20,485 bases of DNA from a virus: the UHGV virus genome UHGV-0139389; one strand, 5' to 3'. A model generated the notes under the pieces. That model made no database searches, was not told the DNA's origin, and saw only the letters and a program-made list of their open reading frames with translations. Shown piece by piece: positions 2,725 through 20,354 of this stretch. The position numbers and the translations under genes are program-made. Position 1 is the stretch's first letter. Each line of letters opens with the position of its first letter.

Positions 2725-2730
2725 ATTACT

Positions 2731-2792
2731 AAACAACGGGGAGGGAATGACCTTCCCCACTAAATAAAGTCCTAAACTGGAGATTCTAAATT
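2731..2792 (+). repeat. Intergenic cassette copy (hairpin 2738-2758, RBS variant CTGGAG)
   Basis: Sequence identity to other copies. Confidence 0.8.
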
Positions 2793-4620: not shown

Positions 4621-4670
4621 TATGATGGTGACCCAGAGGTTGGGACAACCGATAAAATTTTATAAAAATT

Positions 4671-4693
4671 AAAAAGCCCCCAATTAAGGAGGC
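4671..4693 (-). terminator. Rho-independent terminator of minus-strand block
   Basis: Minus strand GCCTCC-TTAATT-GGGGGC followed by TTTTT, 13 nt downstream of stop at 4706. Confidence 0.5.
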
Positions 4694-4705
4694 TCTTAAG
4701 ATATT

Positions 4706-5254: not shown

Positions 5255-5267
5255 ATCTATCACACCA

Positions 5268-5732: not shown

Positions 5733-6150
5733 AAGCTCTCCGAATAACCCTATTAAGCATCTCTAAAGTCAGCTTTCCAGATTCTAAATGTGGCATAATG
5801 AGCTTTAAAGCTTCTTCAACATCATGCACAACATCTATTATACCTTCTTCATAGGCTTCTACAAGGATATCTTTTACATTTTGTGATTTACCTTTTTGTG
5901 GTATCACTAGACGCATATCAAACTCATTTGCTTGAGGGTGGTCACTACCATGCCAGTAACCATCTTTGTTAAAGCTGATGTAGTCACCGTGGTAAAAGTG
6001 TACACCATTAGCTTTAAACTTCTCCAGCACAAGGCATTGAATTGGGTATTCAGTATTCCACTCCCTGACTCCTATAACCTTCACTGTTGCGATGTACTCC
6101 TGTGTTTTTACATCTATGATGTCAAGTTCTTGACCAGCTATGATTTGCAT
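5722..6150 (-). CDS. hypothetical protein, 142 aa
   Basis: ATG at 6150 with AGAAGG 8 nt upstream. Confidence 0.6.
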   Translation of the reverse strand: MQIIAGQELDIIDVKTQEYIATVKVIGVREWNTEYPIQCLVLEKFKANGVHFYHGDYISFNKDGYWHGSDHPQANEFDMRLVIPQKGKSQNVKDILVEAYEEGIIDVVHDVEEALKLIMPHLESGKLTLEMLNRVIRRAYEN

Positions 6151-6203
6151 ATTCGCTACCTTCTAAGTTCTACAAAGGGGCTATCAAGTAACCCCTCAAG
6201 TTA

Positions 6204-6428
6204 TTACTCAGACTTTTCAGTCTTCTTGTCGGATTTCTTACTAGTCTTCTTCTCAGCTTTCTGCTCAGGTTCCTTCTCAGAAGTTGCCTTGATAACCATA
6301 TCAAGAAGTTCTGATAAGTCACTCTTCAGAAGCGTTACAGGCTGCTCATTATAGAAGTTTTTGTCAAGATAGACTTTGAACTCTTCTATAGAAGGAAATC
6401 CAAAAATTGGTACAGGTGTCTTAATCAT
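6204..6428 (-). CDS. hypothetical protein, 74 aa, K/E-rich C-terminal tail
   Basis: ATG at 6428; low-complexity tail EKEPEQKAEKKTSKKSDKKTEKSE. Confidence 0.55.
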   Translation of the reverse strand: MIKTPVPIFGFPSIEEFKVYLDKNFYNEQPVTLLKSDLSELLDMVIKATSEKEPEQKAEKKTSKKSDKKTEKSE

Positions 6429-6523
6429 TACTTAGTCTCTCCATAGGCATCTTTTAAGATTGCCTTGTTAATCATTTCAGCGATTGCAAAACGAACACAT
6501 ACAGCTATAATTGTAGGTTGCAT
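6428..6523 (-). CDS. possible small hydrophobic peptide, 31 aa (MQPTIIAVCVRFAIAEMINKAILKDAYGETK)
   Basis: ATG at 6523; stop TAA overlaps downstream ATG as TAATG, the same coupling pattern used elsewhere in this block; fills the 6429-6504 gap. Confidence 0.25.
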   Translation of the reverse strand: MQPTIIAVCVRFAIAEMINKAILKDAYGETK

Positions 6524-7008
6524 TCTTTACTTACCTCTTCAAGTTTAACCTCAGAATCCTTGAGTCGTTTCTTATGAACTCTGAACCTTATTAGTGAGAT
6601 GATGATACCAGCTAAAGGAACAGCATACAAGTACCAGACATCATGTAGTTTTGATGTAATCTGTGTAATTGTCAAATCTTGAGCTATGCAGCTAATTGCT
6701 GATACTGCCAGTAACATTGCTAAGAAGAACGCCAGCACCATGACAACACTTAGGCAGCCTCTGGCATGGTGTTCATGCTTAATACACTTATTCTTTTCGT
6801 CAACAACCCTGTTGTAGTCGTTTGTAAAGTCTCTGTAGAAAGCTTTCAAGTATTCTTTATTGTAGCCTTCAAAGCAACCTGTACCGTACCAATAATCACC
6901 ACCAAAATGTGCTATGATACCAGTATCTCCGTTTGGTTTGGTTACTCTTAAAGAAGTATGATGACGAGTATCCTGATAATCTATCTTATATCTCTCTTCA
7001 AAAATCAT
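6505..7008 (-). CDS. membrane protein, 167 aa, two predicted TM helices (start trimmed from 7038)
   Basis: ATG at 7008 has GAGAGGGG RBS and forms ATGA overlap with upstream stop; hydrophobic segments VVMVLAFFLAMLLAVSAISCIA and YLYAVPLAGIIISLI. Confidence 0.6.
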   Translation of the reverse strand: MIFEERYKIDYQDTRHHTSLRVTKPNGDTGIIAHFGGDYWYGTGCFEGYNKEYLKAFYRDFTNDYNRVVDEKNKCIKHEHHARGCLSVVMVLAFFLAMLLAVSAISCIAQDLTITQITSKLHDVWYLYAVPLAGIIISLIRFRVHKKRLKDSEVKLEEVSKECNLQL

Positions 7009-7223
7009 TTTACAACCCCTCTCAATCGTTTGTTCCATTCAAGGTCAACAAATCTTTGCAGGACTTTCCCTCTAGGTGTTACACCTTTTAAATCTGCATC
7101 GTAACAATGGTAAAAGTCACCTTCAGCATGTTTACCATAGCATTTTCTGATATTCTGGCTTCTGCGATACTGTTCTAACAAGGACAGTTTGTAGTAATCT
7201 TCAACTGTAGTTAGTTTTTTCAT
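7005..7223 (-). CDS. hypothetical protein, 72 aa
   Basis: ATGA overlap with upstream gene. Confidence 0.55.
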   Translation of the reverse strand: MKKLTTVEDYYKLSLLEQYRRSQNIRKCYGKHAEGDFYHCYDADLKGVTPRGKVLQRFVDLEWNKRLRGVVK

Positions 7224-7765
7224 TCTTTCACCATAGCATTTCTGAACTGACGTTGTGTTTCTCTTGTAATTTCGTTTGGAGTAAACCCTGCTTTCAGCAT
7301 ATCTCTGAAAAGAACTTCTAAATGGTTCCTCTCAATGATGTAAATGGCATTCTGAATAGCTGTTTTGCGCTCCTTCAGGTCACTACTAATCTCTTCGCAC
7401 TTACTGGTAAGTTCTGTGTCAGTTTTCTTATAGACTGGCATAACATGTGCGTAGCAACCTTTATTAGTCTCCATGAAAAATTTAAAAGATTCTTCAGAGT
7501 CCTTTAGAGCAATCCCTATAAAGTTCTTGTAAGCACCTGTGAAAGATAAGGACTCAATCTCAGCAGTTGAGTATACAGTCCCTGCACACAGCCTTGCAGA
7601 AGTACTAAATGTGTGGTTTGGTGTCATGTCAAAATCTAAGTTCTTCAGTGGCCTGAAATAAACAATACCGTTGTGTGAGATATGTGTTACAACAGCCTCA
7701 ACACTCTTTGACGGATTCTGTTTAACGTACAAAATTATTTTATCTTTTTCTTTCACTGTAGCCAT
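7220..7765 (-). CDS. hypothetical protein, 181 aa
   Basis: ATG at 7765 preceded by GGAG. Confidence 0.6.
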   Translation of the reverse strand: MATVKEKDKIILYVKQNPSKSVEAVVTHISHNGIVYFRPLKNLDFDMTPNHTFSTSARLCAGTVYSTAEIESLSFTGAYKNFIGIALKDSEESFKFFMETNKGCYAHVMPVYKKTDTELTSKCEEISSDLKERKTAIQNAIYIIERNHLEVLFRDMLKAGFTPNEITRETQRQFRNAMVKE

Positions 7766-7783
7766 ATCTATTCTCCAGAAACT

Positions 7784-7812
7784 AAAAAGGGAACTACCTC
7801 TCGATAGCTCCC
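7784..7812 (-). terminator. Intergenic hairpin + T5 (terminator or attenuator)
   Basis: Minus strand GGGAGC-12 nt loop-GTTCCC followed by TTTTT, between genes 7838-8419 and 7220-7765. Confidence 0.4.
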
Positions 7813-7837
7813 ATCATAATTAATGTTGTATACTCAG

Positions 7838-8419
7838 TCAAGAGTATTTTTTAGGCAGTAATGCACTACGCTTGTTACTTTCCTCACTCAGTAGTGCGAT
7901 AAATTCATCACCTTTGCCTTTCCACGGGCTAAATGTAGGGATGTGTTCTCTGATAGCCTCAATCACTGTCTTCAGTGCGTTATTCTTTAACCACCAATCA
8001 GATACTGCCGCTGCTACAACATAGTAAGCACCATCATCTGTGAAGATTGGCTCAGAGATACATGGTGAAATCATGGTAGTGATGATTGAGCCATTATTCA
8101 TGTAATATGTTCTTTTTTCAACCTTATCAAGAAGCTTATGTAGGTCTGCAAAGAGACTCACAACCTCTTTATGGTCAATATCTTTTTCAAGATTTGCTCT
8201 GTATTTCAGTAGTGCAGCATCAACCTCTTTATCATTGAATTTGAAGTATTGAACTTCTTCATTCACACATACACTGATATTGTTAGTGTTTATCGTCAAT
8301 TTGCACAGTTTGACTGGAGAGTTGATGTTGGTCTGAAAAAGTGCTACACAGCCTTCTACATTTCCGAAATGTTTTACTAATGTAACTTCTGGTTGGATGT
8401 GTTCATGCTCTTCTGACAT
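7838..8419 (-). CDS. hypothetical protein, 193 aa
   Basis: ATG at 8419; TAATG overlap with upstream gene. Confidence 0.6.
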   Translation of the reverse strand: MSEEHEHIQPEVTLVKHFGNVEGCVALFQTNINSPVKLCKLTINTNNISVCVNEEVQYFKFNDKEVDAALLKYRANLEKDIDHKEVVSLFADLHKLLDKVEKRTYYMNNGSIITTMISPCISEPIFTDDGAYYVVAAAVSDWWLKNNALKTVIEAIREHIPTFSPWKGKGDEFIALLSEESNKRSALLPKKYS

Positions 8420-8763
8420 TATAGTTTCCTCATTAAATACTTTTTAAGTTGTGTGTTAGGTTTCTCAAAAACTTCTATAGAAGATATCTTGACAGACTCA
8501 CCACGCATACCTGTATGTTTAAATATGTAATACTCTAACATCCCTATGTACTTTGCTGGTAAGTCATGTTTGACATACACTGTTACAGAATCTTCAAATT
8601 CAACAACCTTTGTACCATCCTTGTAGTTAAACTCTCTAGGGTGGTTGTAGTTATCAATGTCATACATTAAAAAGAGTCTTTTCCGTTGCATGTCAAGCTT
8701 ATTGGTTAAAGACTCTTTGATATCTGAGAAGTTTTTGTACACTACTACATGGAGCTTACTCAT
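8419..8763 (-). CDS. hypothetical protein, 114 aa
   Basis: ATG at 8763. Confidence 0.6.
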   Translation of the reverse strand: MSKLHVVVYKNFSDIKESLTNKLDMQRKRLFLMYDIDNYNHPREFNYKDGTKVVEFEDSVTVYVKHDLPAKYIGMLEYYIFKHTGMRGESVKISSIEVFEKPNTQLKKYLMRKL

Positions 8764-9049
8764 CGTTAAACTCTCTGACGAAGAAATAGTTGACTTTGTT
8801 ATTACCTACCATAAGGTCAAAGCAGGTATTCTCAAAAGGTTTGTTGTAGGCATCGTATGAAGTGTACGTATCAGCTACTTGTTTAGTATTGAGCTTTTTA
8901 CTTGATGGGTTTAAGAGGCCACCATACAGTTTCTTGATAGCCTCTTCTACAACAGACCAGATGATTTCGTCAGTAATTTCTTCGTACAGGTCAAGTTCAC
9001 GCTCTAGTGAGAAGTCACAAATAGGGAAGATAACCTGTACTTTGCTCAT
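8756..9049 (-). CDS. hypothetical protein, 97 aa
   Basis: ATG at 9049; TAATG overlap. Confidence 0.55.
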   Translation of the reverse strand: MSKVQVIFPICDFSLERELDLYEEITDEIIWSVVEEAIKKLYGGLLNPSSKKLNTKQVADTYTSYDAYNKPFENTCFDLMVGNNKVNYFFVREFNDE

Positions 9050-9444
9050 TAACGAATAACCTGTGTGACTTGAATTGCTTCAGTTACGGACAAATCACCA
9101 ACTTTCTCTTCTTTGATGAAAGTAAAGGTTAGTTCAACAGGTTCTTGCTCTTCTTGCTCAACTGGAATACCGTTAAGCTCATCAAAGATTGATTGGGTAG
9201 TCCAGTCTTCTCCACCATCTGGATAGTGGATGGCATAAAGAGGAAACTCTAAATTATACCAAGCAAAAACAGGACAACCGTCTGCATCATCTCGGCATCT
9301 GTGGAGGTACGTATTTGTACCTTCAAAATGCAAATGAAGATTGCCATTCTTCTCAAATAGAAGAGCATCTCGCAGGTCTAGTTCCTTATTTTCGCTGTAA
9401 CGACTGACATCAACTTTAACGTGGATATGACTGTTATTATTCAT
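9049..9444 (-). CDS. hypothetical protein, 131 aa (start trimmed from TTG 9468)
   Basis: ATG at 9444 preceded by GAGAGAGG with 5-nt spacer. Confidence 0.6.
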   Translation of the reverse strand: MNNNSHIHVKVDVSRYSENKELDLRDALLFEKNGNLHLHFEGTNTYLHRCRDDADGCPVFAWYNLEFPLYAIHYPDGGEDWTTQSIFDELNGIPVEQEEQEPVELTFTFIKEEKVGDLSVTEAIQVTQVIR

Positions 9445-9835
9445 AAAAACCTCTCTCTGCTTGTTCAATTTTTGCTCTTAAAGTTTCGCAATGCTGTAAA
9501 TGGTAGTTAGCTTCTTGTTCATGTGTTGCTAACTGCCTTTCCAGAACAGTTTTATAGTAACCTGCAAGTTGCTCTTTTGTCAATGGGTGCTCTGAAATAA
9601 TATCAAGTCCACTTTCACCAAGAGGATTGAATTGTCCATGCTCATTGACATTGTAAGTCTCAAACTTGAACATACCATTGTTCACAGACTCAATAGGTGA
9701 CAGTTCAACAAGCTCTACAGTAAACCGTGTATACACCTTGTCGCCTCTTGAAACTACATTGTTTCCAATGATGCGTACAAGTGAACCGTTACGAGTGTAC
9801 TTAAAAGTCCCAAAGTCACTAGCCCAAAGTTTCAT
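9437..9835 (-). CDS. hypothetical protein, 132 aa
   Basis: ATG at 9835 with TAAGGAG RBS. Confidence 0.65.
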   Translation of the reverse strand: MKLWASDFGTFKYTRNGSLVRIIGNNVVSRGDKVYTRFTVELVELSPIESVNNGMFKFETYNVNEHGQFNPLGESGLDIISEHPLTKEQLAGYYKTVLERQLATHEQEANYHLQHCETLRAKIEQAERGFYE

Positions 9836-9852
9836 AGTTTTCTCCTTAGAAA

Positions 9853-9875
9853 ATAAAAAAGGCTCCCGAAGGAGC
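9853..9875 (-). terminator. Rho-independent terminator after lysozyme gene
   Basis: Minus strand GGCTCC-TTCG-GGAGCC followed by TTTTTT, 12 nt after stop. Confidence 0.65.
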
Positions 9876-9886
9876 CTATGAAGATA

Positions 9887-10351
9887 TTACTTTGGGTATA
9901 CACTGTCAAGATAAATGTCAGCTTCCATTCTACGTCTGTTTTTCAGACCGTTTGAAGTGACCTTCTTACCTTTGACTGTAACCTTGTTCCACCACTGCAT
10001 AGCTTCTGCACAACCTACCTTATTACCAGCATTGTGGCGCTTGATAAATGTGGAATCCTGCATAGCTGTGATACCGATGTTGTATGTTTCACTTACAAGT
10101 GCATCGAACTCATTCTGAGTAGTTGGAACCTTGATAGCTTTGTTCACTGCTGCAACAAACTTCTCAACATCCGCGAGAAGATACTGTTCAGCTTGTTCAG
10201 CAGTAATTTTCATACCCATCTTAACAGGTTTTCCGTCAATACGGATTGTCCCATACCCGATTGTTGGGATTCCGGCAGAATCTTCGTAAGCCTCTAACTC
10301 CAGACCTTCGAAGAACTTAATAGCATCTAAACCTTTTCTTGAGAGTTGCAT
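9887..10351 (-). CDS. endolysin, glycoside hydrolase family 24 (T4 lysozyme-like)
   Basis: Motif FEGLELEAYEDSAGIPTIGYG (catalytic Glu, TIGYG) as recalled for T4/P22-type lysozymes; 154 aa. Confidence 0.85.
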   Translation of the reverse strand: MQLSRKGLDAIKFFEGLELEAYEDSAGIPTIGYGTIRIDGKPVKMGMKITAEQAEQYLLADVEKFVAAVNKAIKVPTTQNEFDALVSETYNIGITAMQDSTFIKRHNAGNKVGCAEAMQWWNKVTVKGKKVTSNGLKNRRRMEADIYLDSVYPK

Positions 10352-11484
10352 TACGCCTCCCCTGCTGGGTTAACTGTAACTGTTGCTGCATTGGATGTTA
10401 CAGAGCCACCTGCACCAGTAACTACACAGGTGTAGCTTCCTGCATCAGCAGCGGTCGCACCTTCTTTGGTGTAAGTTGCAGTAGTTGCATCAAGGATGTC
10501 TTCCTCACCTTTCTTCCACTGGTAACCTGTCGCACCTGTTGCCACAACATTCAGCGTTAAGGTCTCACCTTCATTGATTTCTTGATTGGTTGGCTGTTGA
10601 GTGATTACCGGAAGTGCGTTAACAGTAACCGTTGCAGGGCTAGAAGTGACAGAACCACCTGCACCTGTTACAACACAAGTGTATGAACCTGCATCTGCTG
10701 GCAGAGCACCAGACTTACTATAGGTTGCATCTGTAGCCGAAGGAATGTCAGAGCCATCTTTCTTCCACTGATAACCTGTTGCACCTGTTGCAGTCACTTC
10801 CAAGTTGATGTTTCCACCCTCATTGACGGTCTGGCTAGAAGGTTGTTGTGTAATCACAGGCAGTGCGTTGACAGTAACTGTTGCCGCATCTGAGGTAACG
10901 CTTGTCCCAGCCTCTCCAGATACAACACAAGTGTATGAACCGGCATCAGAAGGTTCTACAGACTGTTTTGTGTAGGTTGCAGATGTGGCGCTAGTGATAT
11001 CCTCACCATCCTTTTTCCATTGATATCCAGTGGCATTAGTTGCAATAACGCTTAGGGTAAGTGTACCACCTTCATTTACTGTTTGATTGGTTGGCTGTTG
11101 AGTGATTGATGGTGGCTTGATGGCGTCCTTCAACTTAGCATTCAACATTGAGAATGGTTTAACTCTTGCCAGCCATTCGCAATAAACTGTATCAACGTCT
11201 TTACCATTGATAATTGTATATTGTAAGTCCATGAAGAAGTCAGAAGTTCTCATTTGAGCACCAACACTGTAAAGCAACTCATCACTAAATGGAACTTTGT
11301 AGTCTGGTTTATAGTCAAACTTCTCAACTTCTGCAATATCAGCTTCAGGCCAATACGAGCTATAGGTAAGTGGTAAAATAGCCTCTTGATATGTTCTAAA
11401 ATCATATCTCTTACCAGCCTTTACGTTTGCAATGAAGCCCTTCACAAACTCTTTGAAGTCTGGGTAAGTCTTTGCTTTAATCAT
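10351..11484 (-). CDS. virion surface/decoration-like protein: N-terminal domain + three tandem Ig-like domains
   Basis: Three ~83-aa repeats each with GYQWKK...DAGSYTCVV (Ig-like I-set signature); N-terminal 120 aa paralogous to product of 11481-11852; function inferred. Confidence 0.7.
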   Translation of the reverse strand: MIKAKTYPDFKEFVKGFIANVKAGKRYDFRTYQEAILPLTYSSYWPEADIAEVEKFDYKPDYKVPFSDELLYSVGAQMRTSDFFMDLQYTIINGKDVDTVYCEWLARVKPFSMLNAKLKDAIKPPSITQQPTNQTVNEGGTLTLSVIATNATGYQWKKDGEDITSATSATYTKQSVEPSDAGSYTCVVSGEAGTSVTSDAATVTVNALPVITQQPSSQTVNEGGNINLEVTATGATGYQWKKDGSDIPSATDATYSKSGALPADAGSYTCVVTGAGGSVTSSPATVTVNALPVITQQPTNQEINEGETLTLNVVATGATGYQWKKGEEDILDATTATYTKEGATAADAGSYTCVVTGAGGSVTSNAATVTVNPAGEA

Positions 11485-11852
11485 TTCTTTTCAGCCTCTA
11501 AATGTGCGTTTAGTCTAAAATAACCTTTGTGATTCGGAGATACATCACCAACGACAATACCTTTAACCTTATAGCCTTTACCAATTACATACTGGATATC
11601 CATAAGGAATCTTCCAAGACCAACAATATGGAACATTGGGTATAATAGATTCTCAGAGTCTGGAATATTGATTTCAGGTTTGTAGGTACGCTGTTCGCTT
11701 GTTGGTGTAATATCTTCTTCAGGCCATTTACTGAGTCTCCATGTCAAAGGTGTTGGGATAACATCATTAAGGTTGTACCTTTCACCATTTTGCACGGAAT
11801 TGATATAGGATTGTAGGAAGCAATAAAAGTCTTTTGCACTCTTAGCTTTCAT
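11481..11852 (-). CDS. paralogue of N-terminal domain of the Ig-like protein, 123 aa
   Basis: Shared motifs WPExDI, YKP, LLY, F(L/F)MD(I/L)QY; ATGA overlap with downstream gene; AAGGA RBS. Confidence 0.65.
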   Translation of the reverse strand: MKAKSAKDFYCFLQSYINSVQNGERYNLNDVIPTPLTWRLSKWPEEDITPTSEQRTYKPEINIPDSENLLYPMFHIVGLGRFLMDIQYVIGKGYKVKGIVVGDVSPNHKGYFRLNAHLEAEKK

Positions 11853-11899
11853 TAAATATCCTTATAAATAGTTAAAGGGGCATCAGCCCCTATTCACAC

Positions 11900-12490
11900 T
11901 TAAGCTTTGGTCTTAAGTAGGTTCTTAAGTTTTTTAAGATTCATACTCTCATCAAACTTAAAACCAAATCCATTGACATAATCAATGAACTCGGATTTCT
12001 TACTGAGTGACAATGCGTAACTCATATCAAAGTTCTTACTTGTTTCTGCGTCTGGACTAGAGTTCACATCAAATGAAATTTCCGTAGGCTCTTGCTTACT
12101 TTTTCTCATATTATCAACCAACAAACATGTATAGTTTGCTGGATAGAAATTTACACTACCATCAACGTAGCTGTACTTATTATTATGGATAAGGTTGGAA
12201 AATACCTTAAGGAATGTTTCTGAGTCGTGGCAAACAAGTTTGAATTGGCTGCTCTCTCCAAGCGCAACTAATGAATACGGACTTTCACTATCAAAGTCAT
12301 AATTTGGATTCGATGACGTTACTGTTACACGCATCAAGTTATTAGCAATAGTCTTCTGTTTAAAAGAATTTGGAACATAGTGAAGACCTCTATCACACTG
12401 ATTAACTAATTCTTTCAATAGGTCATTTGCATATGGTGAATTAATTGATACAGAGCCATCACTATTGTAATTAAAACTTACTGTTAACAT
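11900..12490 (-). CDS. hypothetical protein, 196 aa
   Basis: ATG at 12490; hairpin AGGGGC-TGAT-GCCCCT downstream at 11874-11889. Confidence 0.6.
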   Translation of the reverse strand: MLTVSFNYNSDGSVSINSPYANDLLKELVNQCDRGLHYVPNSFKQKTIANNLMRVTVTSSNPNYDFDSESPYSLVALGESSQFKLVCHDSETFLKVFSNLIHNNKYSYVDGSVNFYPANYTCLLVDNMRKSKQEPTEISFDVNSSPDAETSKNFDMSYALSLSKKSEFIDYVNGFGFKFDESMNLKKLKNLLKTKA

Positions 12491-12717
12491 TTTTCAGTTC
12501 TCCTGCGATTTATAATTTTGCTGCAATAGAGAAACGAAGTAAACTCACTGGAAGAAACCATTAAGTGTTGTTCACTAGATTGAGCCATTGCCCTGAAATA
12601 CATTCCAGTCAAAGCATCATAGTGACTATTCTTTCCAATTGAGGTTATATAGCCATGACTCTTTGCAGTTTGATATAAGTCTATAATATCTGCGATTTCT
12701 AATTGGGAACTACACAT
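12484..12717 (-). CDS. hypothetical protein, 77 aa
   Basis: ATG at 12717. Confidence 0.5.
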   Translation of the reverse strand: MCSSQLEIADIIDLYQTAKSHGYITSIGKNSHYDALTGMYFRAMAQSSEQHLMVSSSEFTSFLYCSKIINRRRTEKC

Positions 12718-15143: not shown

Positions 15144-15220
15144 CTCTGTTTAGCTCAGCTTGGTAGAGCGTTCCGTTTGGGGCGGTAAGGCCGGAGGTTC
15201 AAGTCCTCCAACAGAGACCA
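15144..15220 (+). tRNA. tRNA-Pro (anticodon TGG)
   Basis: Acceptor CTCTGTT/AACAGAG (C1-G72), T-arm GGAGG-TTCAAGT-CCTCC, loop TTTGGGG, CCA encoded. Confidence 0.8.
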
Positions 15221-15227
15221 AATTAAT

Positions 15228-15305
15228 GTTCCAGTAGACAAAATGGTAAAGTCACCACTCTTTCAAAGTGGATATCTGAGGGTTCAAATCCCTTCTGGAA
15301 CGCCA
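15228..15305 (+). tRNA. tRNA-Glu (anticodon TTC)
   Basis: Acceptor GTTCCAG/CTGGAAC, anticodon stem CCACT/AGTGG, T-loop TTCAAAT, CCA. Confidence 0.8.
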
Positions 15306-15312
15306 GTTTTGA

Positions 15313-15385
15313 CAGAAGACCAATTACAGCAAACTTAATCTACTCATCTGAAAGTTAATCGGACAAAGAAGATATTTGGTCTGGT
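15313..15385 (+). ncRNA. Stem-closed spacer RNA element U1 (conserved 5' CAGAAGACC..TACAGCAA, 3' GGTCTGG)
   Basis: 5' AGACCAA pairs 3' TTGGTCT; member of 4-copy family with compensatory changes. Confidence 0.4.
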
Positions 15386-15395
15386 CATTAAGAAT

Positions 15396-15472
15396 TGCGG
15401 GTATAGAGAAAGGGCGTCTCACATGTCTCATTAGCATGGTATCGGCAGGTTCGACTCCTGCACCCGCCTCCA
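15396..15472 (+). tRNA. tRNA with anticodon CAT (Met or Ile-lysidine)
   Basis: T-arm GCAGG-TTCGACT-CCTGC, acceptor 6 bp with 1-72 mismatch, loop CTCATTA, CCA. Confidence 0.7.
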
Positions 15473-15478
15473 AATTTA

Positions 15479-15545
15479 CAGAAGACCGTTTACAGCAATA
15501 TTTATTAAATTTTTAGCGGAAAAATTGAAAGATACGGTCTGGTAA
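15479..15545 (+). ncRNA. Stem-closed spacer RNA element U2
   Basis: 5' AGACCGT pairs 3' ACGGTCT; conserved TACAGCAA after stem. Confidence 0.4.
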
Positions 15546-15555
15546 TACTAAACAT

Positions 15556-15632
15556 GGTTAGGAAGCACATAAGGTATGTGCGGTCGCCTGTTAAGCGAAT
15601 GGCACAGGGTTCGAATCCCTGACTAACCGCCA
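15556..15632 (+). tRNA. tRNA-Asn (anticodon GTT)
   Basis: T-arm CAGGG-TTCGAAT-CCCTG, acceptor GGTTAGG/ACTAACC (one mismatch), loop CTGTTAA, CCA. Confidence 0.75.
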
Positions 15633-15701
15633 AATTTAGGAGAGAAGCGATTGCTCACCGATTTGTAAGGTGCAAGTCCTTAGCCTGAATAGAAATCAAA
15701 T

Positions 15702-15789
15702 GTGTCGTTATCCCGTAGATGGTAGCGGTGGGGACTGTAAATCCCTTGTCATTGAGACTCGGTAGGTTCGACTCCTACACGGCACACCA
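15702..15789 (+). tRNA. tRNA-Tyr (anticodon GTA), long variable arm
   Basis: Acceptor GTGTCGT/ACGGCAC, loop CTGTAAA, T-arm GTAGG-TTCGACT-CCTAC, 85 nt + CCA. Confidence 0.8.
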
Positions 15790-15795
15790 AATAAA

Positions 15796-15873
15796 GGTTA
15801 TGTAGTTTAATCTGGTTAAAATACTCCCCTGTCACGGGAGATGATGAGGGTTCAAATCCCTTCATAACCGCCA
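15796..15873 (+). tRNA. tRNA-Asp (anticodon GTC)
   Basis: Acceptor GGTTATG/CATAACC, stem CTCCC/GGGAG, loop CTGTCAC, CCA. Confidence 0.85.
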
Positions 15874-15934
15874 ATTTTGAGAGGGCTATTTAGCCCCTCC
15901 CTTAAAGAGTTCTTACGAGTATTCTTTAAAGGAG

Positions 15935-16010
15935 CAGAAGACCAAATACAGCAAGAATGTATGAAATTTCAAGCCAATTCAATTTTGAAAATTTAAAACT
16001 TGGTCTGGCT
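15935..16010 (+). ncRNA. Stem-closed spacer RNA element U3
   Basis: 5' AGACCAA pairs 3' TTGGTCT; conserved 5' CAGAAGACCAAATACAGCAA. Confidence 0.4.
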
Positions 16011-16022
16011 CAACAAATTTAC

Positions 16023-16153
16023 AGAAGACCGTTTACAGCAAAACTTAAACAATCTATTTCTCCGGTAAAGAAAAGGCGAGGGTTCGATTCCTTCACTCGG
16101 CAGATGTCGAGTTGGTGTAATGGTAGCACTTAAGATGATAAACAACGGTCTGG
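16023..16153 (+). ncRNA. Candidate Y-RNA-like (YrlA-like) RNA: terminal stem enclosing tRNA-like module without anticodon arm
   Basis: 8-bp stem AGACCGTT(16026-16033)/AACGGTCT(16144-16151); inside: T-arm GAGGG-TTCGATT-CCTTC (16078-16094), capped acceptor-like hairpin ACTCGGC-AGAT-GTCGAGT (16095-16112), D-arm-like GTG-TAATGGTAG-CAC. Confidence 0.45.
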
Positions 16154-16160
16154 TAATTAC

Positions 16161-16292
16161 CTTTGTAGATAAGTTATTAAGCTTACTTGTGAGTATGCGA
16201 CCACAAAGGGTGAATGGGTAAATTCTAGATTTAAACCCAAAAAGGCACATCGCTACAGACCTTAAGCAAGTCTGGGTAGCTTATCTACAAAG
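16161..16292 (+). ncRNA. Structured element closed by perfect 13-bp long-range stem
   Basis: CTTTGTAGATAAG (16161-16173) is exact reverse complement of CTTATCTACAAAG (16280-16292); internal hairpin CAGAC-CTTAAGCAA-GTCTG. Confidence 0.4.
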
Positions 16293-16302
16293 ATAATTTA
16301 AT

Positions 16303-16378
16303 GGAAGTGTAGCAGAATGGTGATGCGGCAGACTTTTAATCTGACAGGCGATGGGTTCGAATCCCTCCACTTCTACCA
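16303..16378 (+). tRNA. tRNA-Lys (anticodon TTT)
   Basis: Acceptor GGAAGTG/CACTTCT (G1-U72), loop CTTTTAA, T-loop TTCGAAT with weak T-stem, CCA. Confidence 0.7.
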
Positions 16379-16382
16379 ATAT

Positions 16383-16459
16383 GGTTCAGTCGCAGATAAG
16401 GTAATGCAAGGGTCTCATAAGCCCTATGAATGTGGGTTCGATTCCCATCTGAACCTCCA
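16383..16459 (+). tRNA. tRNA with anticodon CAT (Met or Ile-lysidine), second copy
   Basis: Acceptor GGTTCAG/CTGAACC, stem AGGGT/GCCCT, loop CTCATAA, T-loop TTCGATT, CCA. Confidence 0.8.
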
Positions 16460-16460
16460 A

Positions 16461-16536
16461 GCTGGTATAGTTAAGAAGGTTATAACACTCCCCTGATAAG
16501 GGAACATCGGTGGTTCGATTCCACCTACCAGTACCA
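16461..16536 (+). tRNA. tRNA-Ile (anticodon GAT)
   Basis: Acceptor GCTGGTA/TACCAGT (G1-U72), T-arm GGTGG-TTCGATT-CCACC, loop CTGATAA, CCA. Confidence 0.8.
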
Positions 16537-16551
16537 ATTTCAATAAAGTTG

Positions 16552-16580
16552 TTGACATTGAGATGTGACTACTTTATAGT
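16552..16580 (+). promoter_or_regulatory. Internal sigma70-like promoter TTGACA-17 nt-TATAGT
   Basis: Counted spacing 17 nt; best consensus match in window; precedes ~200-nt unassigned spacer and tRNA-Arg. Confidence 0.5.
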
Positions 16581-16782
16581 AACCTTAGTTTTCGTTGCGT
16601 AGCGTCTATTTTGCAAATTTAAAATAAATGCAAACGACAATGTTTTTCTGGCAGTAGCTTGATAGGCTAAACACCAGTGAGGTCTTCCAATCCCTCATCA
16701 AAGAATTTGGCGTACTCGCCCACGGTATGATTAATAAGGTGGGCATCTTTAAGGGCTTTCTAAGAGAGTCTTTAAAGATAAT

Positions 16783-16859
16783 GCACCCTTAGTTCAATTG
16801 GATAGAGCAACGGTCTTCTAAATCGTTAGTTACAGGTTCGAATCCTGTAGGGTGTACCA
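16783..16859 (+). tRNA. tRNA-Arg (anticodon TCT)
   Basis: Acceptor GCACCCT/AGGGTGT (G1-U72), D-arm GTTC-AATTGGATA-GAGC, loop CTTCTAA, T-arm ACAGG-TTCGAAT-CCTGT, CCA. Confidence 0.85.
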
Positions 16860-17001
16860 AATAGTTAGCAGATTGCTTAGACGACCTTATCGGGTCTCCG
16901 TGTAAGGAGGTGGTCTGTATCTCATGTTTTCCAGAACATGTAAATAATCTGAGAAGGGGCTTTACAGTGTTGAGATAATACGGTAAGCTTCGAATTATAG
17001 T

Positions 17002-17084
17002 ATGGGACGATGTTAAGACTCTAAGGCATGAGCAACGGCTTCCAACACCGTTTCAAAGGGGTTCAACTCCTCCGTCCCATGCCA
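17002..17084 (+). tRNA. tRNA-like, probable anticodon CCA (Trp), non-canonical D region (80 nt)
   Basis: Exact 7-bp acceptor ATGGGAC/GTCCCAT, T-loop TTCAACT, loop TTCCAAC, CCA encoded; ~7 extra nt between acceptor and anticodon stem. Confidence 0.45.
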
Positions 17085-17097
17085 AAGTCTTATTAGG

Positions 17098-17185
17098 GGT
17101 AGGTAGCGGCTAATGGTAGCCAAACTGTCTTGAAAACAGTTGCCACTGTAGAGATACGGTGAGGGTTCGACTCCTTTACTTACCG
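17098..17185 (+). tRNA. tRNA-Ser (anticodon TGA), long variable arm
   Basis: Acceptor GGTAGGT/ACTTACC, stem ACTGT/ACAGT, loop CTTGAAA, 20-nt variable arm, T-loop TTCGACT; no encoded CCA. Confidence 0.75.
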
Positions 17186-17342
17186 CCTAATAAGATTTAA
17201 AGCCAAGCTTCATTCGGATGTTGCTTTGGTATACCGCGTGTATTGTTGTACACACTGATAAAACACCTAGTAGGTGTCACGGAGAAGAGATAATATCAAG
17301 CTCTCCAAAGGTTCTAGTCACCGGATTAAACAAGACTATGCA

Positions 17343-17363
17343 AAGACCTTTTTAGGTCTTTTT
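17343..17363 (+). terminator. Weak hairpin + short T-tract
   Basis: AAGACC-TTTTTA-GGTCTT then TTT. Confidence 0.3.
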
Positions 17364-17442
17364 AGAGGGCTTCTAAGGTTATTACAGCTTGTTGTGGAAC
17401 CTTGTTGCTTAGGTTCTTAGAAGTTCTCTAAAAAGATTTAAT

Positions 17443-17519
17443 GCACCTATAGCCCAACTGGTAGAGGCAGCAGACTTAGAATCTGCTCAGTGTGAGTTCG
17501 AATCTCTCTAGGTGTACCA
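17443..17519 (+). tRNA. tRNA with anticodon TAG (Leu by anticodon) but short variable loop
   Basis: Acceptor GCACCTA/TAGGTGT (G1-U72), stem GCAGA/TCTGC exact, loop CTTAGAA, 5-nt variable loop, A73, CCA. Confidence 0.7.
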
Positions 17520-17526
17520 AATTAAT

Positions 17527-17602
17527 GCAGGTGTAGCAAAATGGTTATGCGGCTGACTCTTAATCAGTAAGACGATGGGTTCAATTCCCTCCACCTGTAC
17601 CA
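17527..17602 (+). tRNA. tRNA-Lys (anticodon CTT)
   Basis: Acceptor GCAGGTG/CACCTGT (G1-U72), loop CTCTTAA, T-loop TTCAATT, CCA; paralogue of tRNA at 16303. Confidence 0.75.
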
Positions 17603-17608
17603 AACAAT

Positions 17609-17684
17609 GGGGTCATAGTTTATATGGTTAAAATTCGAGTTTTGCAAACTTGGGAACTGAGTTCAATTCTCAGTGACTCCACCA
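17609..17684 (+). tRNA. tRNA-Ala (anticodon TGC)
   Basis: Acceptor GGGGTCA/TGACTCC with G3-U70 wobble (Ala identity element), loop TTTGCAA, T-arm CTGAG-TTCAATT-CTCAG, CCA. Confidence 0.85.
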
Positions 17685-17690
17685 ATTAGT

Positions 17691-17765
17691 GCATCCATAG
17701 TTTAAACGGGAAAATTACAGTCTTCCAAACTGAGGTTGAGGGTTCGATTCCCTCTGGATGCTCCA
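17691..17765 (+). tRNA. tRNA-Gly (anticodon TCC)
   Basis: Acceptor GCATCCA/TGGATGC, loop CTTCCAA, T-arm GAGGG-TTCGATT-CCCTC, CCA. Confidence 0.85.
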
Positions 17766-17772
17766 AATTAAT

Positions 17773-17848
17773 GCTCCTATCGTATAATTGGTTATTACGG
17801 TTGCCTTGTAAGCAACTTATCAGGGTTCGAGTCCTTGTGGGAGCACCA
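17773..17848 (+). tRNA. tRNA-Thr (anticodon TGT)
   Basis: Acceptor GCTCCTA/TGGGAGC, stem GTTGC/GCAAC, loop CTTGTAA, T-loop TTCGAGT, CCA. Confidence 0.85.
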
Positions 17849-17944
17849 ATTCAGAGGTCAAGTGAAAGACCGCTTTGAGTCAACTGAAGACCGTAACAAA
17901 TTCCACGAAGTTGAGTTAGCGGCACAACTTCAGACCTCTTTCAT

Positions 17945-18019
17945 ACTCGCTTAGTTTATATGGTAAAACATCACCCTTACAAGATGAAGAAAAAGGTTCA
18001 AGTCCTTTAGTGAGTACCA
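17945..18019 (+). tRNA. tRNA-Val (anticodon TAC)
   Basis: Acceptor ACTCGCT/AGTGAGT, D-arm GTTT-ATATGGTA-AAAC, loop CTTACAA, T-arm AAAGG-TTCAAGT-CCTTT, CCA. Confidence 0.8.
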
Positions 18020-18020
18020 T

Positions 18021-18098
18021 GTTCCAGTATCCCAATTGGCAGAGGATGCAAGCTCAAACCTTGTATTAGTGACGGTTCGAATCCGTCTTGGAACACCA
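18021..18098 (+). tRNA. tRNA with anticodon CAA (Leu by anticodon) but short variable loop
   Basis: Acceptor GTTCCAG/TTGGAAC, loop CTCAAAC, T-arm GACGG-TTCGAAT-CCGTC, A73, CCA. Confidence 0.7.
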
Positions 18099-18103
18099 AT
18101 TTT

Positions 18104-18179
18104 GCAGGATTAGTTCAAATGGAAAGAGCAACAGTCTACGAAGCTGTTAATAGGGGTTCGAATCCCTTATCCTGCGCCA
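18104..18179 (+). tRNA. tRNA-Arg (anticodon ACG)
   Basis: Acceptor GCAGGAT/ATCCTGC, D-arm GTTC-AAATGGAAA-GAGC, loop CTACGAA, T-arm AGGGG-TTCGAAT-CCCTT, CCA. Confidence 0.85.
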
Positions 18180-18196
18180 GATAAAAAGGTGATACT

Positions 18197-18439
18197 ATGC
18201 AAACATTAACAGTAGTTGAACATGAAAACTGTGAGAGTATTGAGTTTGTCAGGGTCATTGGTGTTGAACACCACATTTTCTTAAAAGTGGGATACTTATG
18301 TGACCCCGCTAGAGTAGAAAGATTTATACGTGATTGTTTTGGTGGTAGACAGCTGAAGAGTGTTATTTTTGAGACAGTTTTACCAGAAGGTTTAGAAACG
18401 AATAATAACATTTACCTCCTTACGAGGATTAGACAATGA
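18197..18439 (+). CDS. hypothetical protein, 80 aa, embedded in tRNA array
   Basis: ATG at 18197 with AAGGTG RBS; ATGA overlap with next ORF. Confidence 0.55.
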   Translation: MQTLTVVEHENCESIEFVRVIGVEHHIFLKVGYLCDPARVERFIRDCFGGRQLKSVIFETVLPEGLETNNNIYLLTRIRQ

Positions 18440-18993
18440 GATACTTAAAGTATGCTTCATGGATTTTCTTAGCTTTGTTAGAGCCATTTGCAGCAATCTT
18501 AGCAGTTATCTTAGCACCTTTTGTAGTTCCATTCTACAGTGAGAAGAAAGGACACTTACCTTTCGGGTTCAGATGGATGGAGACTTATGACAACCCAATT
18601 GATGGTGATGCAGGTCATATCAAACGATGGGCTAAGATTAGAAAGATTGGTAAGCTTGGTGTCTACATGCAGAGAGTTGGATGGCTCTGGAGAAACAAAG
18701 CTTATAACTTCTCTTACCATGTATTAGGAAGAGATGTAAAAGATGTTACTAAGTGGAAAGGTAATATCAACGTAAGTTCTAACCCTGAAGATAATCAGAC
18801 TGGTTATCTCCTAATGTGGAACAGTAATGCTTGGGGATTATTCGCTTTTGTGCCGTCAATCAAAATCTTTGGTAAACAATTTTACTGGAGAATTTATGTT
18901 GGGTGGAAACTTAAAAGTGTTGTCCCAGAAGAAAGAGCATTTTCAAGGGAAAGAGTTATGTTGGCATTCTTTATTCATCCACTAAGAAAGTAA
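18436..18993 (+). CDS. hypothetical membrane protein, 185 aa (N-terminal TM helix)
   Basis: ATG at 18436, GAGGA RBS; hydrophobic N-terminus WIFLALLEPFAAILAVILAPFVVPF. Confidence 0.6.
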   Translation: MRYLKYASWIFLALLEPFAAILAVILAPFVVPFYSEKKGHLPFGFRWMETYDNPIDGDAGHIKRWAKIRKIGKLGVYMQRVGWLWRNKAYNFSYHVLGRDVKDVTKWKGNINVSSNPEDNQTGYLLMWNSNAWGLFAFVPSIKIFGKQFYWRIYVGWKLKSVVPEERAFSRERVMLAFFIHPLRK

Positions 18994-19001
18994 AGATTTA
19001 A

Positions 19002-19077
19002 AGGGGATTAGTTTACAAGGTTAAAACCTCGGTCTTTGAAATCGAAGAAGTTGGTTCAATTCCAACATCCCCCGCCA
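19002..19077 (+). tRNA. tRNA-Gln (anticodon TTG)
   Basis: Acceptor with A1/C72 mismatch then GGGGAT/ATCCCC, loop CTTTGAA, T-arm GTTGG-TTCAATT-CCAAC, CCA. Confidence 0.75.
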
Positions 19078-19079
19078 AT

Positions 19080-19158
19080 GCTCCATTACTCCAATTGGCA
19101 GAGAGGCCAGACTTAAAATCTGTGTTATGTATCGGTTCGAATCCGATATGGAGTACCA
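19080..19158 (+). tRNA. tRNA with anticodon TAA (Leu by anticodon) but short variable loop
   Basis: Acceptor GCTCCAT/ATGGAGT (G1-U72), loop CTTAAAA, T-arm ATCGG-TTCGAAT-CCGAT, A73, CCA; D-arm paralogous to tRNAs at 17443 and 18021. Confidence 0.7.
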
Positions 19159-19163
19159 AATTT

Positions 19164-19239
19164 AGCGGTATAGCATAACTGGCAATGCAGCAGTCTCTGA
19201 AGCTGTCCTATTAAGGTTCAAATCCTTATGCCGCTGCCA
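19164..19239 (+). tRNA. tRNA-Gln (anticodon CTG)
   Basis: Acceptor AGCGGTA/TGCCGCT, D-arm GCAT-AACTGGCA-ATGC, loop CTCTGAA, T-arm TAAGG-TTCAAAT-CCTTA, CCA. Confidence 0.7.
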
Positions 19240-19270
19240 CTTCTAAGGATTCTTACGAGAGTCCTTAAAT

Positions 19271-19346
19271 GTGGCCTTATCATAAATGGTAATGACCCAT
19301 GCTGTGAACATGGTCTATACGGGTTCAAATCCCGTAGGTCACCCCA
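19271..19346 (+). tRNA. tRNA-His (anticodon GTG)
   Basis: Acceptor GTGGCCT/AGGTCAC, stem CCATG/CATGG exact, loop CTGTGAA, C73, CCA. Confidence 0.85.
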
Positions 19347-19352
19347 ATTTAT

Positions 19353-19428
19353 AGTCCAAGTAGCTTATATGGTTAAAGCGCGTGTCTGAAAAACATGAGA
19401 AGAGGGTTCAAATCCCACTGGACTACCA
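19353..19428 (+). tRNA. tRNA-Phe (anticodon GAA), boundaries +/-2 nt
   Basis: D-arm GCTT-ATATGGTTA-AAGC, stem CGTGT/ACATG, loop CTGAAAA, T-loop TTCAAAT; acceptor register ambiguous. Confidence 0.65.
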
Positions 19429-19444
19429 ATTTCAAAGGTGCTTA

Positions 19445-20179
19445 ATGAAAGAGATGACAGAACAAGGTAAGGAGATTTTCAATCTCTTAAAAACCGGTAA
19501 AGGGTTTTCTAACCCCCTTATTACTGGTGCAGCAGTTCTCGGTGGAACCGTAGCTGCCTCTACATCACTTGTAAGCTCTATTAGCTCTGTATCAGACCCT
19601 ACAGTAAAGGATAAGCTTGTTGCTGCTGGACTTACAACAGTTCTGCTTAACAGCTTTACCACGAGTCTGACAAGCACTACATCAACTACCAAAACACTAA
19701 CAGATTACGGTCAAAAGTCCATTGATGAGTTTTCATCACGTATGCAGGTAGCAAAAGGTTACTCTAATGTTATGGGTGCAGCAGGTGAACAAGTTGGCTG
19801 TACACCATTTAGTGGTATTATGGGTGTTGCTACAGAGTATGGTCAAAAAGCTATTGATACGATTAACAGTGCACTAGATAGTGTTAATGGTGTGTTAAGT
19901 GACTTACAAGATGCTATTGACAAAGGTCTTGATACTATTTCTGATTTAGCTGAGCAAGCTGTTAGTAAGATTAATGAAGGTATTTCAAAAATTACAGCTT
20001 ATGCAGATGAAGTTGTGCAGATGATTGAAGAAGAAGCTGCTCTTATTGCAGAGTACCTTAAAACGAATATCAATGGGTTCTTAGCAGGTATCTTACCAGA
20101 CTGGTTTGATGATGCTTGTAAAACTGGTGTAATTGACACTATTGCAACACCAGAAATGAAGAACGCATTACAGAAATAA
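19445..20179 (+). CDS. hypothetical protein, 244 aa, Ser/Thr-rich segment (start trimmed from 19382)
   Basis: ORF-track start 19382 lies inside tRNA-Phe; first ATG after the tRNA is 19445 with AGGTG upstream. Confidence 0.6.
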   Translation: MKEMTEQGKEIFNLLKTGKGFSNPLITGAAVLGGTVAASTSLVSSISSVSDPTVKDKLVAAGLTTVLLNSFTTSLTSTTSTTKTLTDYGQKSIDEFSSRMQVAKGYSNVMGAAGEQVGCTPFSGIMGVATEYGQKAIDTINSALDSVNGVLSDLQDAIDKGLDTISDLAEQAVSKINEGISKITAYADEVVQMIEEEAALIAEYLKTNINGFLAGILPDWFDDACKTGVIDTIATPEMKNALQK

Positions 20180-20181
20180 AT

Positions 20182-20274
20182 GGAAGATTAACCCTAAAAG
20201 GTAAGGGAGCAGTTTGCTAAACTGCTAGTAGCTGAGAAATCGGTGTACCAGTTCAAGTCTGGTATCTTCCTCCA
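20182..20274 (+). tRNA. tRNA-Ser (anticodon GCT), long variable arm
   Basis: Exact acceptor GGAAGAT/ATCTTCC, stem GCAGT/ACTGC, loop TTGCTAA, ~21-nt variable arm, T-arm ACCAG-TTCAAGT-CTGGT, CCA. Confidence 0.8.
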
Positions 20275-20278
20275 ATTT

Positions 20279-20354
20279 GAATCCGTGACAGAAACGGCTA
20301 TGTGCCTGTCTGCAAAACAGGTTTATAAGGGTTCGAGTCCCTTCGGATTCTCCA
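20279..20354 (+). tRNA. tRNA-Cys (anticodon GCA)
   Basis: Exact acceptor GAATCCG/CGGATTC, stem CCTGT/ACAGG, loop CTGCAAA, T-loop TTCGAGT, CCA. Confidence 0.85.

Follow-up and report, generated by a model that had tools for sequence, protein, structure and literature searches.

All five leucine tRNA (tRNA-Leu) isoacceptors of Escherichia coli (leuQPV, leuU, leuW, leuX and leuZ) are class II molecules, with a variable region of 13-15 nucleotides (nt) that forms a stem of 4-5 base pairs (bp). The leucyl-tRNA synthetase (LeuRS) of E. coli reads A73, A15-U48, G18G19 and an A of the D loop, together with the G18:U55, G19-C56 and U54:A58 contacts within the tRNA; neither the anticodon nor the long arm is read, and variants deprived of the arm stay active (PMC9976931). 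A14 has been added to this identity set (PMC6614811). The arm-deleted or minimalist E. coli tRNALeu variants, which are active without the long arm as long as A73 and the tertiary contacts between D and T loops are intact, are laboratory constructs (Asahara, Tocchini-Valentini and Larkin, as summarized in PMC9976931). Natural class I tRNA-Leu is known from Streptomyces coelicolor, whose type I tRNALeu(CAA) has a 5-nt variable loop, is found beside class II tRNA-Leu in a cell with just one LeuRS, and is leucylated by this cognate enzyme (PMC6614811), and from animal mitochondria, whose class I tRNALeu(UUR) owes its identity to A73 and A14 (PMC9976931). Here we describe three tRNA-Leu genes with short variable loops and the anticodons UAG, CAA and UAA, located in a tRNA cluster of UHGV virus genome UHGV-0139389, a stretch of viral DNA of 20,485 nt that we call the window.

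With the final 5.5 kb of the window as query, 404 phage records are matched, headed by Escherichia typing phage 1 (KP869100) at 98.2% identity over 99% of the query and followed by wV8 and other Felixounavirus genomes. By these best matches, the window is a Felixounavirus, and hence a Felix O1-like myovirus (Ounavirinae) of E. coli and Salmonella. Our favoured reading, to which we give a probability of about 0.8, is that the three genes encode functional, leucine-accepting, short-armed isoacceptors that are part of a widespread group in phages and Actinomycetota.

Fold, conservation and leucine identity elements

ARAGORN and Rfam both return the three genes at exactly the coordinates that a preliminary description of the window had given (Table 1). 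The Rfam tRNA model RF00005, whose gathering score is 29 bits, is matched over its full length by each gene with an alignment in class I layout, and the total length is 77-79 nt when the encoded CCA is included. In the ARAGORN bracket structures, an acceptor stem of 7 bp, a D stem of 3 bp and anticodon and T stems of 5 bp each surround a D loop of 11 nt and an anticodon loop of 7 nt. No helix is present in the variable region of these structures, which do not have the long arm (over 10 nt with a stem) of class II: in standard numbering, the variable loop is UCAGU in Leu(UAG), AUUAGU in Leu(CAA) and GUUAUGU in Leu(UAA), that is, 5, 6 and 7 nt. The class I architecture, the variable loops of 5-7 nt and the length of 73-76 nt proposed in the preliminary description are thus borne out by measurement, lengths being counted without CCA.

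The anticodon loops (CUUAGAA for UAG, CUCAAAC for CAA and CUUAAAA for UAA) are all 7 nt long, with U33, A35 and a purine at position 37. The codons earlier assigned to them, CUA, UUG and UUA, are the right ones, and the covariance model and ARAGORN folds support full-length tRNAs. D loops are CAACUGGUAGA or CAAUUGGCAGA (GAAUUGGUAGA in E. coli) and the T loop is UUCGAAU. The preliminary description had also noticed a shared form of the D arm and a common A73. Indeed, A73 is the discriminator in all three genes, and the D-arm motif CCAAYTGGYAGAG is found in exactly three copies in the window, each of them within a leucine gene, for an expectation of 0.11 in shuffled sequences, none of which reaches three. 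Leu(UAG) and Leu(UAA) both start with a G1-U72 pair; the former has A37 and a single mismatch in the T stem (U50-U64), the latter a C27-U43 mismatch.

These two mismatches are the only exceptions to standard pairing among the 60 stem cells of the three genes. Of 20 stem pairs, 14 vary from gene to gene, 12 of them through compensatory changes on both sides. About 250 records of Ounavirinae phages (253 for Leu(UAA)) contain each gene at 95% identity or more; compared with Shigella phage Sf14, Leu(CAA) is identical, and Leu(UAG) and Leu(UAA) each differ by 1 nt. In Erwinia phage phiEa104, a distant member of the subfamily, short tRNA-Leu is present too, as genes 77 and 78 nt long whose annotated tRNAscan-SE scores are 50.3 and 51.5. 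The three genes are real, and their tRNA fold is under constraint.

The paralogy suggested by the preliminary description is old rather than recent. With identities counted outside the variable region and anticodon, the three genes share just 62-70%, which rules out a recent triplication of one gene. Leu(UAG) shares 62-67% with its two neighbours in the cluster and 62% with E. coli leuW, as against 78-82% with short tRNA-Leu of phages infecting Pseudomonas, Mycobacterium, Gordonia, Streptomyces and Cronobacter, the latter comparison being biased in that these phages came from a similarity search. What this pattern shows are, as far as identities can tell, old paralogues belonging to a lineage shared across phages. 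No sequence similar to the short leucine genes was found in 5,426 complete E. coli genomes.

Table 1. Leucine tRNA genes of the window, the cluster containing them, and tRNA genes used as internal comparators
Feature	Coordinates	Strand	Characteristics
tRNA-Leu(UAG), class I	17443..17519	+	74 nt + encoded CCA; ARAGORN; RF00005 57.3 bits
tRNA-Leu(CAA), class I	18021..18098	+	75 nt + CCA; ARAGORN; RF00005 44.0 bits
tRNA-Leu(UAA), class I	19080..19158	+	76 nt + CCA; ARAGORN; RF00005 47.5 bits
tRNA gene cluster	15144..20354	+	26 tRNA genes (ARAGORN) with a few small open reading frames in between, all on the + strand
tRNA-Tyr(GUA)	15702..15789	+	88 nt; long variable arm kept; internal comparator (ARAGORN bracket structure)
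tRNA-Ser(UGA)	17098..17187	+	90 nt; long variable arm kept; internal comparator (ARAGORN; RF00005 33.2 bits)
tRNA-Ser(GCU)	20182..20274	+	93 nt; long variable arm kept; internal comparator (ARAGORN; RF00005 47.2 bits)

We aligned 27 sequences, comprising the window genes, the five E. coli K-12 isoacceptors, the tRNA-Leu of phages T4 and T5, and short tRNA-Leu from eight other phages. G1, U8, A14, G18, G19, U33, A35, the last nucleotide of the variable region (U48), G53, U54, U55, C56, A58, C61 and A73 are invariant in all 27, and A15 is nearly so. Each of the three window genes has U8, A14, A15 and the terminal U of the variable loop, bases that would form the tertiary pairs U8-A14 and A15-U48. 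The geometry of the D arm is that of E. coli tRNA-Leu, with a 3-bp stem and an 11-nt loop in which 5 nt precede and 4 nt (YAGA) follow the GG, the D-loop A beyond position 20 included. Going by the aligned bases, all determinants listed in the literature for E. coli LeuRS are present in the three tRNAs; the sole feature missing is the long arm, which according to the identity review is not a determinant.

The resemblance to the host molecules thus extends to A73, U8, A14, A15/U48, G18G19, the T-loop core, a D loop of the form N-A-A-Y-Y-G-G-Y-A-G-A, the G1-U72 pair found in some host members, and the anticodons UAG, CAA and UAA, which the host also possesses. Differences lie in the 5-7 unpaired nucleotides that replace the structured host variable region, in A9 and C13 where the host has G9 and G/A13, and in an overall identity of 52-62% outside the variable region and anticodon. 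In this respect the phage tRNAs look like natural versions of the arm-deleted E. coli constructs, an analogy in which the constructs are artificial and the phage genes are not. The E. coli phages T4 and T5 likewise have a tRNA-Leu in their tRNA clusters, and it carries A73, A14 and A15:U48, but both of these are class II (87 nt in T4 and 85 nt in T5, with variable regions of 15 and 13 nt). According to a note in its database record, T5 tRNA-Leu(UAG) with an altered anticodon is an amber suppressor. Mitochondrial tRNALeu(UUR) differs from the phage tRNAs by its reduced, floppy structure and its dedicated mitochondrial LeuRS, and there is no evidence that the two are related.

A short body associated with leucine anticodons in phages and bacteria

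We scanned viral and cellular genomes with a pattern (CCCAAYTGGYAG-N30-34-GTTCGAATC) in which a D arm of the window type and the T loop are separated by the class I distance. In IMG/VR, 129 of the 132 matches listed, from at least 120 contigs, sit in ARAGORN tRNA-Leu genes of 74-78 nt. The anticodons among these matches are tag, caa, taa, gag, cag and aag, that is, all six of leucine; one match is a tRNA-Trp. Across 185,579 species-representative bacterial and archaeal genomes, 116 of the 121 matches listed are tRNA-Leu, mostly from Actinomycetota. Were leucine identity set by the body and the anticodon free to vary, this is the pattern one would expect, a single body paired with each of the six leucine anticodons and hardly any other; it is in keeping with the behaviour of LeuRS. 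Of 190 unique short tRNA-Leu from viruses, 189 have A73 and 183 have A15:U48; as the pattern fixes positions 11-20, A14, A15 and C13 are partly forced in this set, and A73 and U48 are not. Their stems have standard pairs in 97.7% of cells, with 5.3 pair types per position, and their variable loop measures 5 nt in 170 cases, 6 nt in 15 and 7 nt in 4.

Isotype scoring agrees with this picture. The tRNAscan-SE 2.0 isotype models give Leu as the first choice for all three Sf14 genes, with scores of 67.4, 49.1 and 60.2, the closest competitors of Leu(UAG) being Ile2 (65.7) and Lys (63.4) (PMC12482277). The variable arm goes unmentioned in that paper, published in 2025 and devoted to the 26-tRNA cluster of Sf14.

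When Leu(UAG) was used as a blastn query, near-full-length matches fell on annotated tRNA-Leu genes of very different phages. ARAGORN confirmed short tRNA-Leu of 74-78 nt in Mycobacterium phage ArcherS7, Streptomyces phage StarPlatinum, Gordonia phage Forza, Pseudomonas phage vB_PseuGesM_254, Cronobacter phage CR3, Enterococcus phage Bop, crAss-like phage cr111_1 and Aeromonas phage AhP_Mru1; the tRNA-Ser and tRNA-Tyr of these eight phages keep their long arms, as do those of the window. A class-neutral sample was drawn by collecting 120 viral contigs through a generic T-arm-plus-CCA pattern and counting only bystander tRNAs, the matched ones being left out. It contains 55 tRNA-Leu: 15 short, 39 long and one whose 9-nt variable region belongs to neither class. 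A short arm was seen in none of 46 tRNA-Ser and none of 17 tRNA-Tyr, an asymmetry that is highly significant (15/39 versus 0/63, Fisher p = 2.7e-6).

This contrast between leucine and the other two class II isotypes is a natural experiment, and its outcome fits what synthetase identity rules predict. The extra arm is dispensable for leucine identity and indispensable for serine and tyrosine identity; phage tRNA-Leu would thus repeatedly lose it, and tRNA-Ser and tRNA-Tyr never, most likely because LeuRS needs no arm while SerRS and TyrRS do. The short tRNA-Leu of the class-neutral sample are of two body types. One is window-like, with A9/C13 and an xCAGU variable loop (IMG/VR loci L264, L276, L288, L291 and L345, in the series L258-L375); the other has G9/G13 and an RUUYU loop (L362, L366 and L294), together with a D arm like that of class II tRNA-Leu. 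Judging from these sequences, the extra arm may have been lost at least twice independently, as the two body types suggest.

The window-type short body is also present in at least 120 bacterial species, mostly Actinomycetota, including Mycobacterium, Nocardia, Amycolatopsis, Corynebacterium, Streptomyces and Bifidobacteriaceae. These bacterial genes are usually solitary: 85 of 120 among the matches listed are the only tRNA in their 8-kb locus, and about 20 of the listed loci are tRNA arrays with 6-34 genes per 8 kb. The premise of the preliminary description that bacterial tRNA-Leu is class II therefore stands for the five E. coli isoacceptors, with exceptions in S. coelicolor (PMC6614811) and many other Actinomycetota. 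Its suggestion of unusual short tRNA-Leu species is supported by the identity set, the leucine-tied body and the isotype scores, except that such tRNAs are not peculiar to this phage. No account of short tRNA-Leu in phages came up in full-text literature searches. With type I tRNALeu known from S. coelicolor and mitochondria, and these phage genes annotated as tRNA-Leu in GenBank, the pattern appears under-described rather than new in kind.

Besides relaxed constraint, one may consider that loss of the arm is adaptive, a leucine-charged short tRNA escaping a host factor (for instance a defence nuclease acting on tRNA) that reads the long arm, or avoiding mis-recognition by SerRS. Such selection is compatible with the identity-based explanation, and we regard it as unlikely. 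Eukaryotic Schlafen nucleases do select type II tRNAs. More than one origin of the short form is apparent from the A9/C13 and G9/G13 bodies, its frequency is high (15 of 55 tRNA-Leu in the class-neutral sample), and Leu(UAG) resembles short tRNA-Leu from phages of other bacterial phyla (78-82%) more than it does leuW (62%). The anticodon loop of several phage Leu(UAG) moreover departs from that of the host (A37), and anticodon-loop differences of other phage tRNAs have been read as nuclease evasion (van den Berg et al., PMC10264068). On the other side, no bacterial nuclease selecting tRNA-Leu via its variable arm is named in the literature searched, and T4 and T5, with the same host, have retained a class II tRNA-Leu. 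Solitary chromosomal short tRNA-Leu are common in Actinomycetota, which makes a phage-specific pressure unnecessary, and neutral loss under relaxed constraint accounts equally well for the difference between leucine and serine or tyrosine. In its broadest version, which we hold to be similarly doubtful, phages of many phyla would exchange a lineage of short tRNA-Leu, charged by the LeuRS of each host and invisible to a nuclease or toxin sensing class II tRNAs, arm loss being a recurrent adaptation. If true, the existence of such a lineage charged by host LeuRS would contradict the published statement that E. coli LeuRS acts on type II tRNALeu only.

Two of the phages above carry both forms of tRNA-Leu side by side. 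StarPlatinum (locus L003, 4001-4170) has two tRNA-Leu(UAG) genes 13 nt apart, of 76 nt with a 5-nt variable loop and of 82 nt with a 13-nt variable region, and in Bop (locus L006, 3825-4068) about 80 nt separate a class II Leu(UAA) from a class I Leu(UAG). The tRNA clusters of Bop (L006 4301-4648) and Forza (locus L008, 1813-2214) also include a transfer-messenger RNA gene, for which ARAGORN predicts the tag peptides AKNEELLAVA and EEANAPVVTEADFAEIEAFANSEAAALV, respectively.

Charging and codon usage

Under the favoured reading of functional leucine isoacceptors, the three tRNAs would be transcribed and processed, and their encoded CCA ends would most likely be leucylated by the single LeuRS of the host, E. 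coli or Salmonella, before use on the ribosome. The enzyme would recognize A73 and the tertiary core, made of U8-A14, A15-U48 and a G18G19 placed so as to pair with U55/C56, and would read neither the anticodon nor the extra arm. Leu(UAA) would decode UUA and UUG, Leu(CAA) UUG, and Leu(UAG) CUA together with CUG; a U34 modification like that of the host tRNA would perhaps let Leu(UAG) read CUU as well. The codons served would be far more used by the AT-rich phage than by its host, and the tRNAs would support phage genes rich in UUA, CUA and CUU.

Codon usage was computed for typing phage 1, which is 98% identical, from 46 annotated coding sequences (7,650 codons). The relative synonymous codon usage (RSCU) for leucine is 1.73 for TTA, 1.64 for CTT, 0.88 for CTG, 0.70 for TTG, 0.62 for CTA and 0.42 for CTC, and the late structural block of this phage gives the same picture. 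The corresponding figures for E. coli K-12 are about 0.78 for TTA, 0.62 for CTT, 2.98 for CTG, 0.77 for TTG, 0.22 for CTA and 0.63 for CTC. By comparison with these host values, leucine usage in the phage has moved from CUG to UUA, CUU and CUA. The codon-usage comparison proposed in the preliminary description thus comes out positive for UUA and CUA and negative for UUG. The Sf14 study reports differences between phage and host that are significant for TTA and CTA and not for TTG, and likewise finds partial compensation (PMC12482277).

Several observations weigh against functional leucine isoacceptors serving phage translation. First, the match with codon demand is imperfect: the phage does not over-use TTG (RSCU 0.70), and CTT, its second most used leucine codon, has no dedicated GAG or AAG tRNA. 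As TTG is not enriched, codon compensation by the three tRNAs is only partial. Second, the minimum-free-energy fold is a cloverleaf for two of the three genes and something else for Leu(UAA), with z-scores of -0.16, -1.78 and -1.59 relative to shuffles. Such folding alone is not decisive for these genes, and we relied on covariation instead. Third, two anticodon loops depart from their host equivalents: Leu(UAG) has A37 (loop 17474-17480) in place of the G37 of leuW, which is the site of m1G37, and Leu(CAA) has C38 (loop 18052-18058, CUCAAAC) in place of the A38 of leuX. To judge from these bases, host modifications of the anticodon loop may differ or be absent on the two tRNAs; A37 is seen in several other phage Leu(UAG) genes, that of T5 included. 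Fourth, and most directly, E. coli LeuRS did not charge the type I tRNALeu(CAA) of S. coelicolor and is described as an enzyme for type II tRNALeu only (Fan et al. 2019, PMC6614811). Earlier work of the same authors, as cited there, indicates that the leucine-specific domain of the E. coli enzyme has a preference for tRNAs whose variable region is large.

The S. coelicolor tRNA is cellular and has C48 rather than U48, and its LeuRS ignores A73 (PMC6614811). The window tRNAs, by contrast, have U48 in all three cases and must work with a LeuRS of the E. coli type. Because the E. coli identity set calls for A15-U48, a pair that the phage tRNAs have the bases for and the S. coelicolor tRNA does not, the negative result is probably not directly transferable to the phage molecules, although charging should not be assumed on that basis. 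Restriction of E. coli LeuRS to type II tRNALeu, as stated in the literature, is in tension with a large and conserved family of E. coli and Salmonella phages that would depend on three type I tRNALeu.

If the negative charging result did apply, the three genes would encode tRNA-shaped RNAs that the host LeuRS leaves uncharged: relics, nuclease decoys, or processing signals within the cluster transcript. This would agree with the type II-only description of the enzyme and its failure on a natural type I tRNALeu (PMC6614811), with RF00005 scores of Leu(CAA) and Leu(UAA) that are among the lower ones of the cluster (Table 1), and with the stem mismatch present in each of Leu(UAG) and Leu(UAA). 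It is hard to reconcile with four stems, including that of the anticodon, preserved by compensatory changes, or with canonical 7-nt anticodon loops having U33 and a purine at 37, three distinct and complementary anticodons and an encoded CCA. The full E. coli identity set is kept, for which a decoy would have no use; the genes are near-invariant in hundreds of isolates; and U48, absent from the S. coelicolor tRNA that went uncharged, is present in the phage tRNAs. We consider an uncharged role improbable.

Finally, the idea raised in the preliminary description that these are recoded tRNAs, with leucine anticodons and another amino acid, derived from or mimicking another class I isoacceptor, has as its sole support the class I shape and the close runner-up isotypes of Sf14 Leu(UAG), and is highly implausible in view of a leucine-specific D arm whose motif occurs in no other tRNA of the cluster, a body associated almost exclusively with the six leucine anticodons in the viral and bacterial matches listed, the conservation of A73, A14 and A15:U48, the Leu-first isotype scores of all three Sf14 genes, and anticodons none of which reads a stop codon. 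IleRS, ValRS, MetRS, LysRS, PheRS and GlnRS, for their part, need anticodon bases that the three tRNAs do not have. With anticodons reading CUA, UUG and UUA on a body that has the leucine identity set, neither suppression nor recoding is indicated. The suspicion of genetic-code recoding in the window is thus removed, and the genes would be ordinary in function and unusual in shape.

The tRNA cluster and other features of the window

Twenty-four of the 26 tRNA genes in the cluster reach the Rfam gathering threshold, and gene order is the same in Escherichia typing phage 1 and Shigella phage Sf14. A below-threshold Rfam scan of the cluster revealed no further tRNA-like remnants, its matches being at chance level or reverse-strand echoes of tRNAs. 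Sigma-70 promoters and intrinsic terminators are not enriched in the cluster either (15 against 11.4 and 6 against 4.1 in shuffles, respectively).

The weakest tRNA of the cluster is tRNA-Ser(UGA), which scores 33.2 bits with RF00005, has a sub-threshold tRNA-Sec match of 39 bits and does not encode CCA. It is labelled tRNA-OTHER in Salmonella phage FSL SP-012, and its Sf14 counterpart has a Ser isotype score of just 28.5. In FSL SP-012, the same label is given to the counterpart of tRNA-His(GUG) (19271-19346); in Sf14, the isotype scores of the tRNA-His counterpart are higher for Arg (40.9) and Ile2 (41.3) than for His (31.6). We had considered that the three tRNA-OTHER entries of FSL SP-012 might be untypable leucine genes; they turned out to be two serine genes and the histidine gene, the three leucine genes being annotated as tRNA-Leu.

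Outside the cluster, a stretch of about 1.5 kb (3210-4705) contains no open reading frame of at least 70 amino acids, and the equivalent stretch of typing phage 1 is unannotated. It separates genes on the + strand (29-3041) from genes on the - strand (4706-12717), and is dense in short degenerate repeats, YTGTTAAGA and CTTGTTAG. The window holds 49 matches to these repeats for 20 +/- 5 expected, with 21 of them within 3513-4701, often spaced by 11, 20 or 31 nt, and two inverted copies lie at 3513-3532. In their arrangement the repeats resemble an iteron or regulator-binding array, and the stretch may represent an origin or else a divergent early control region.

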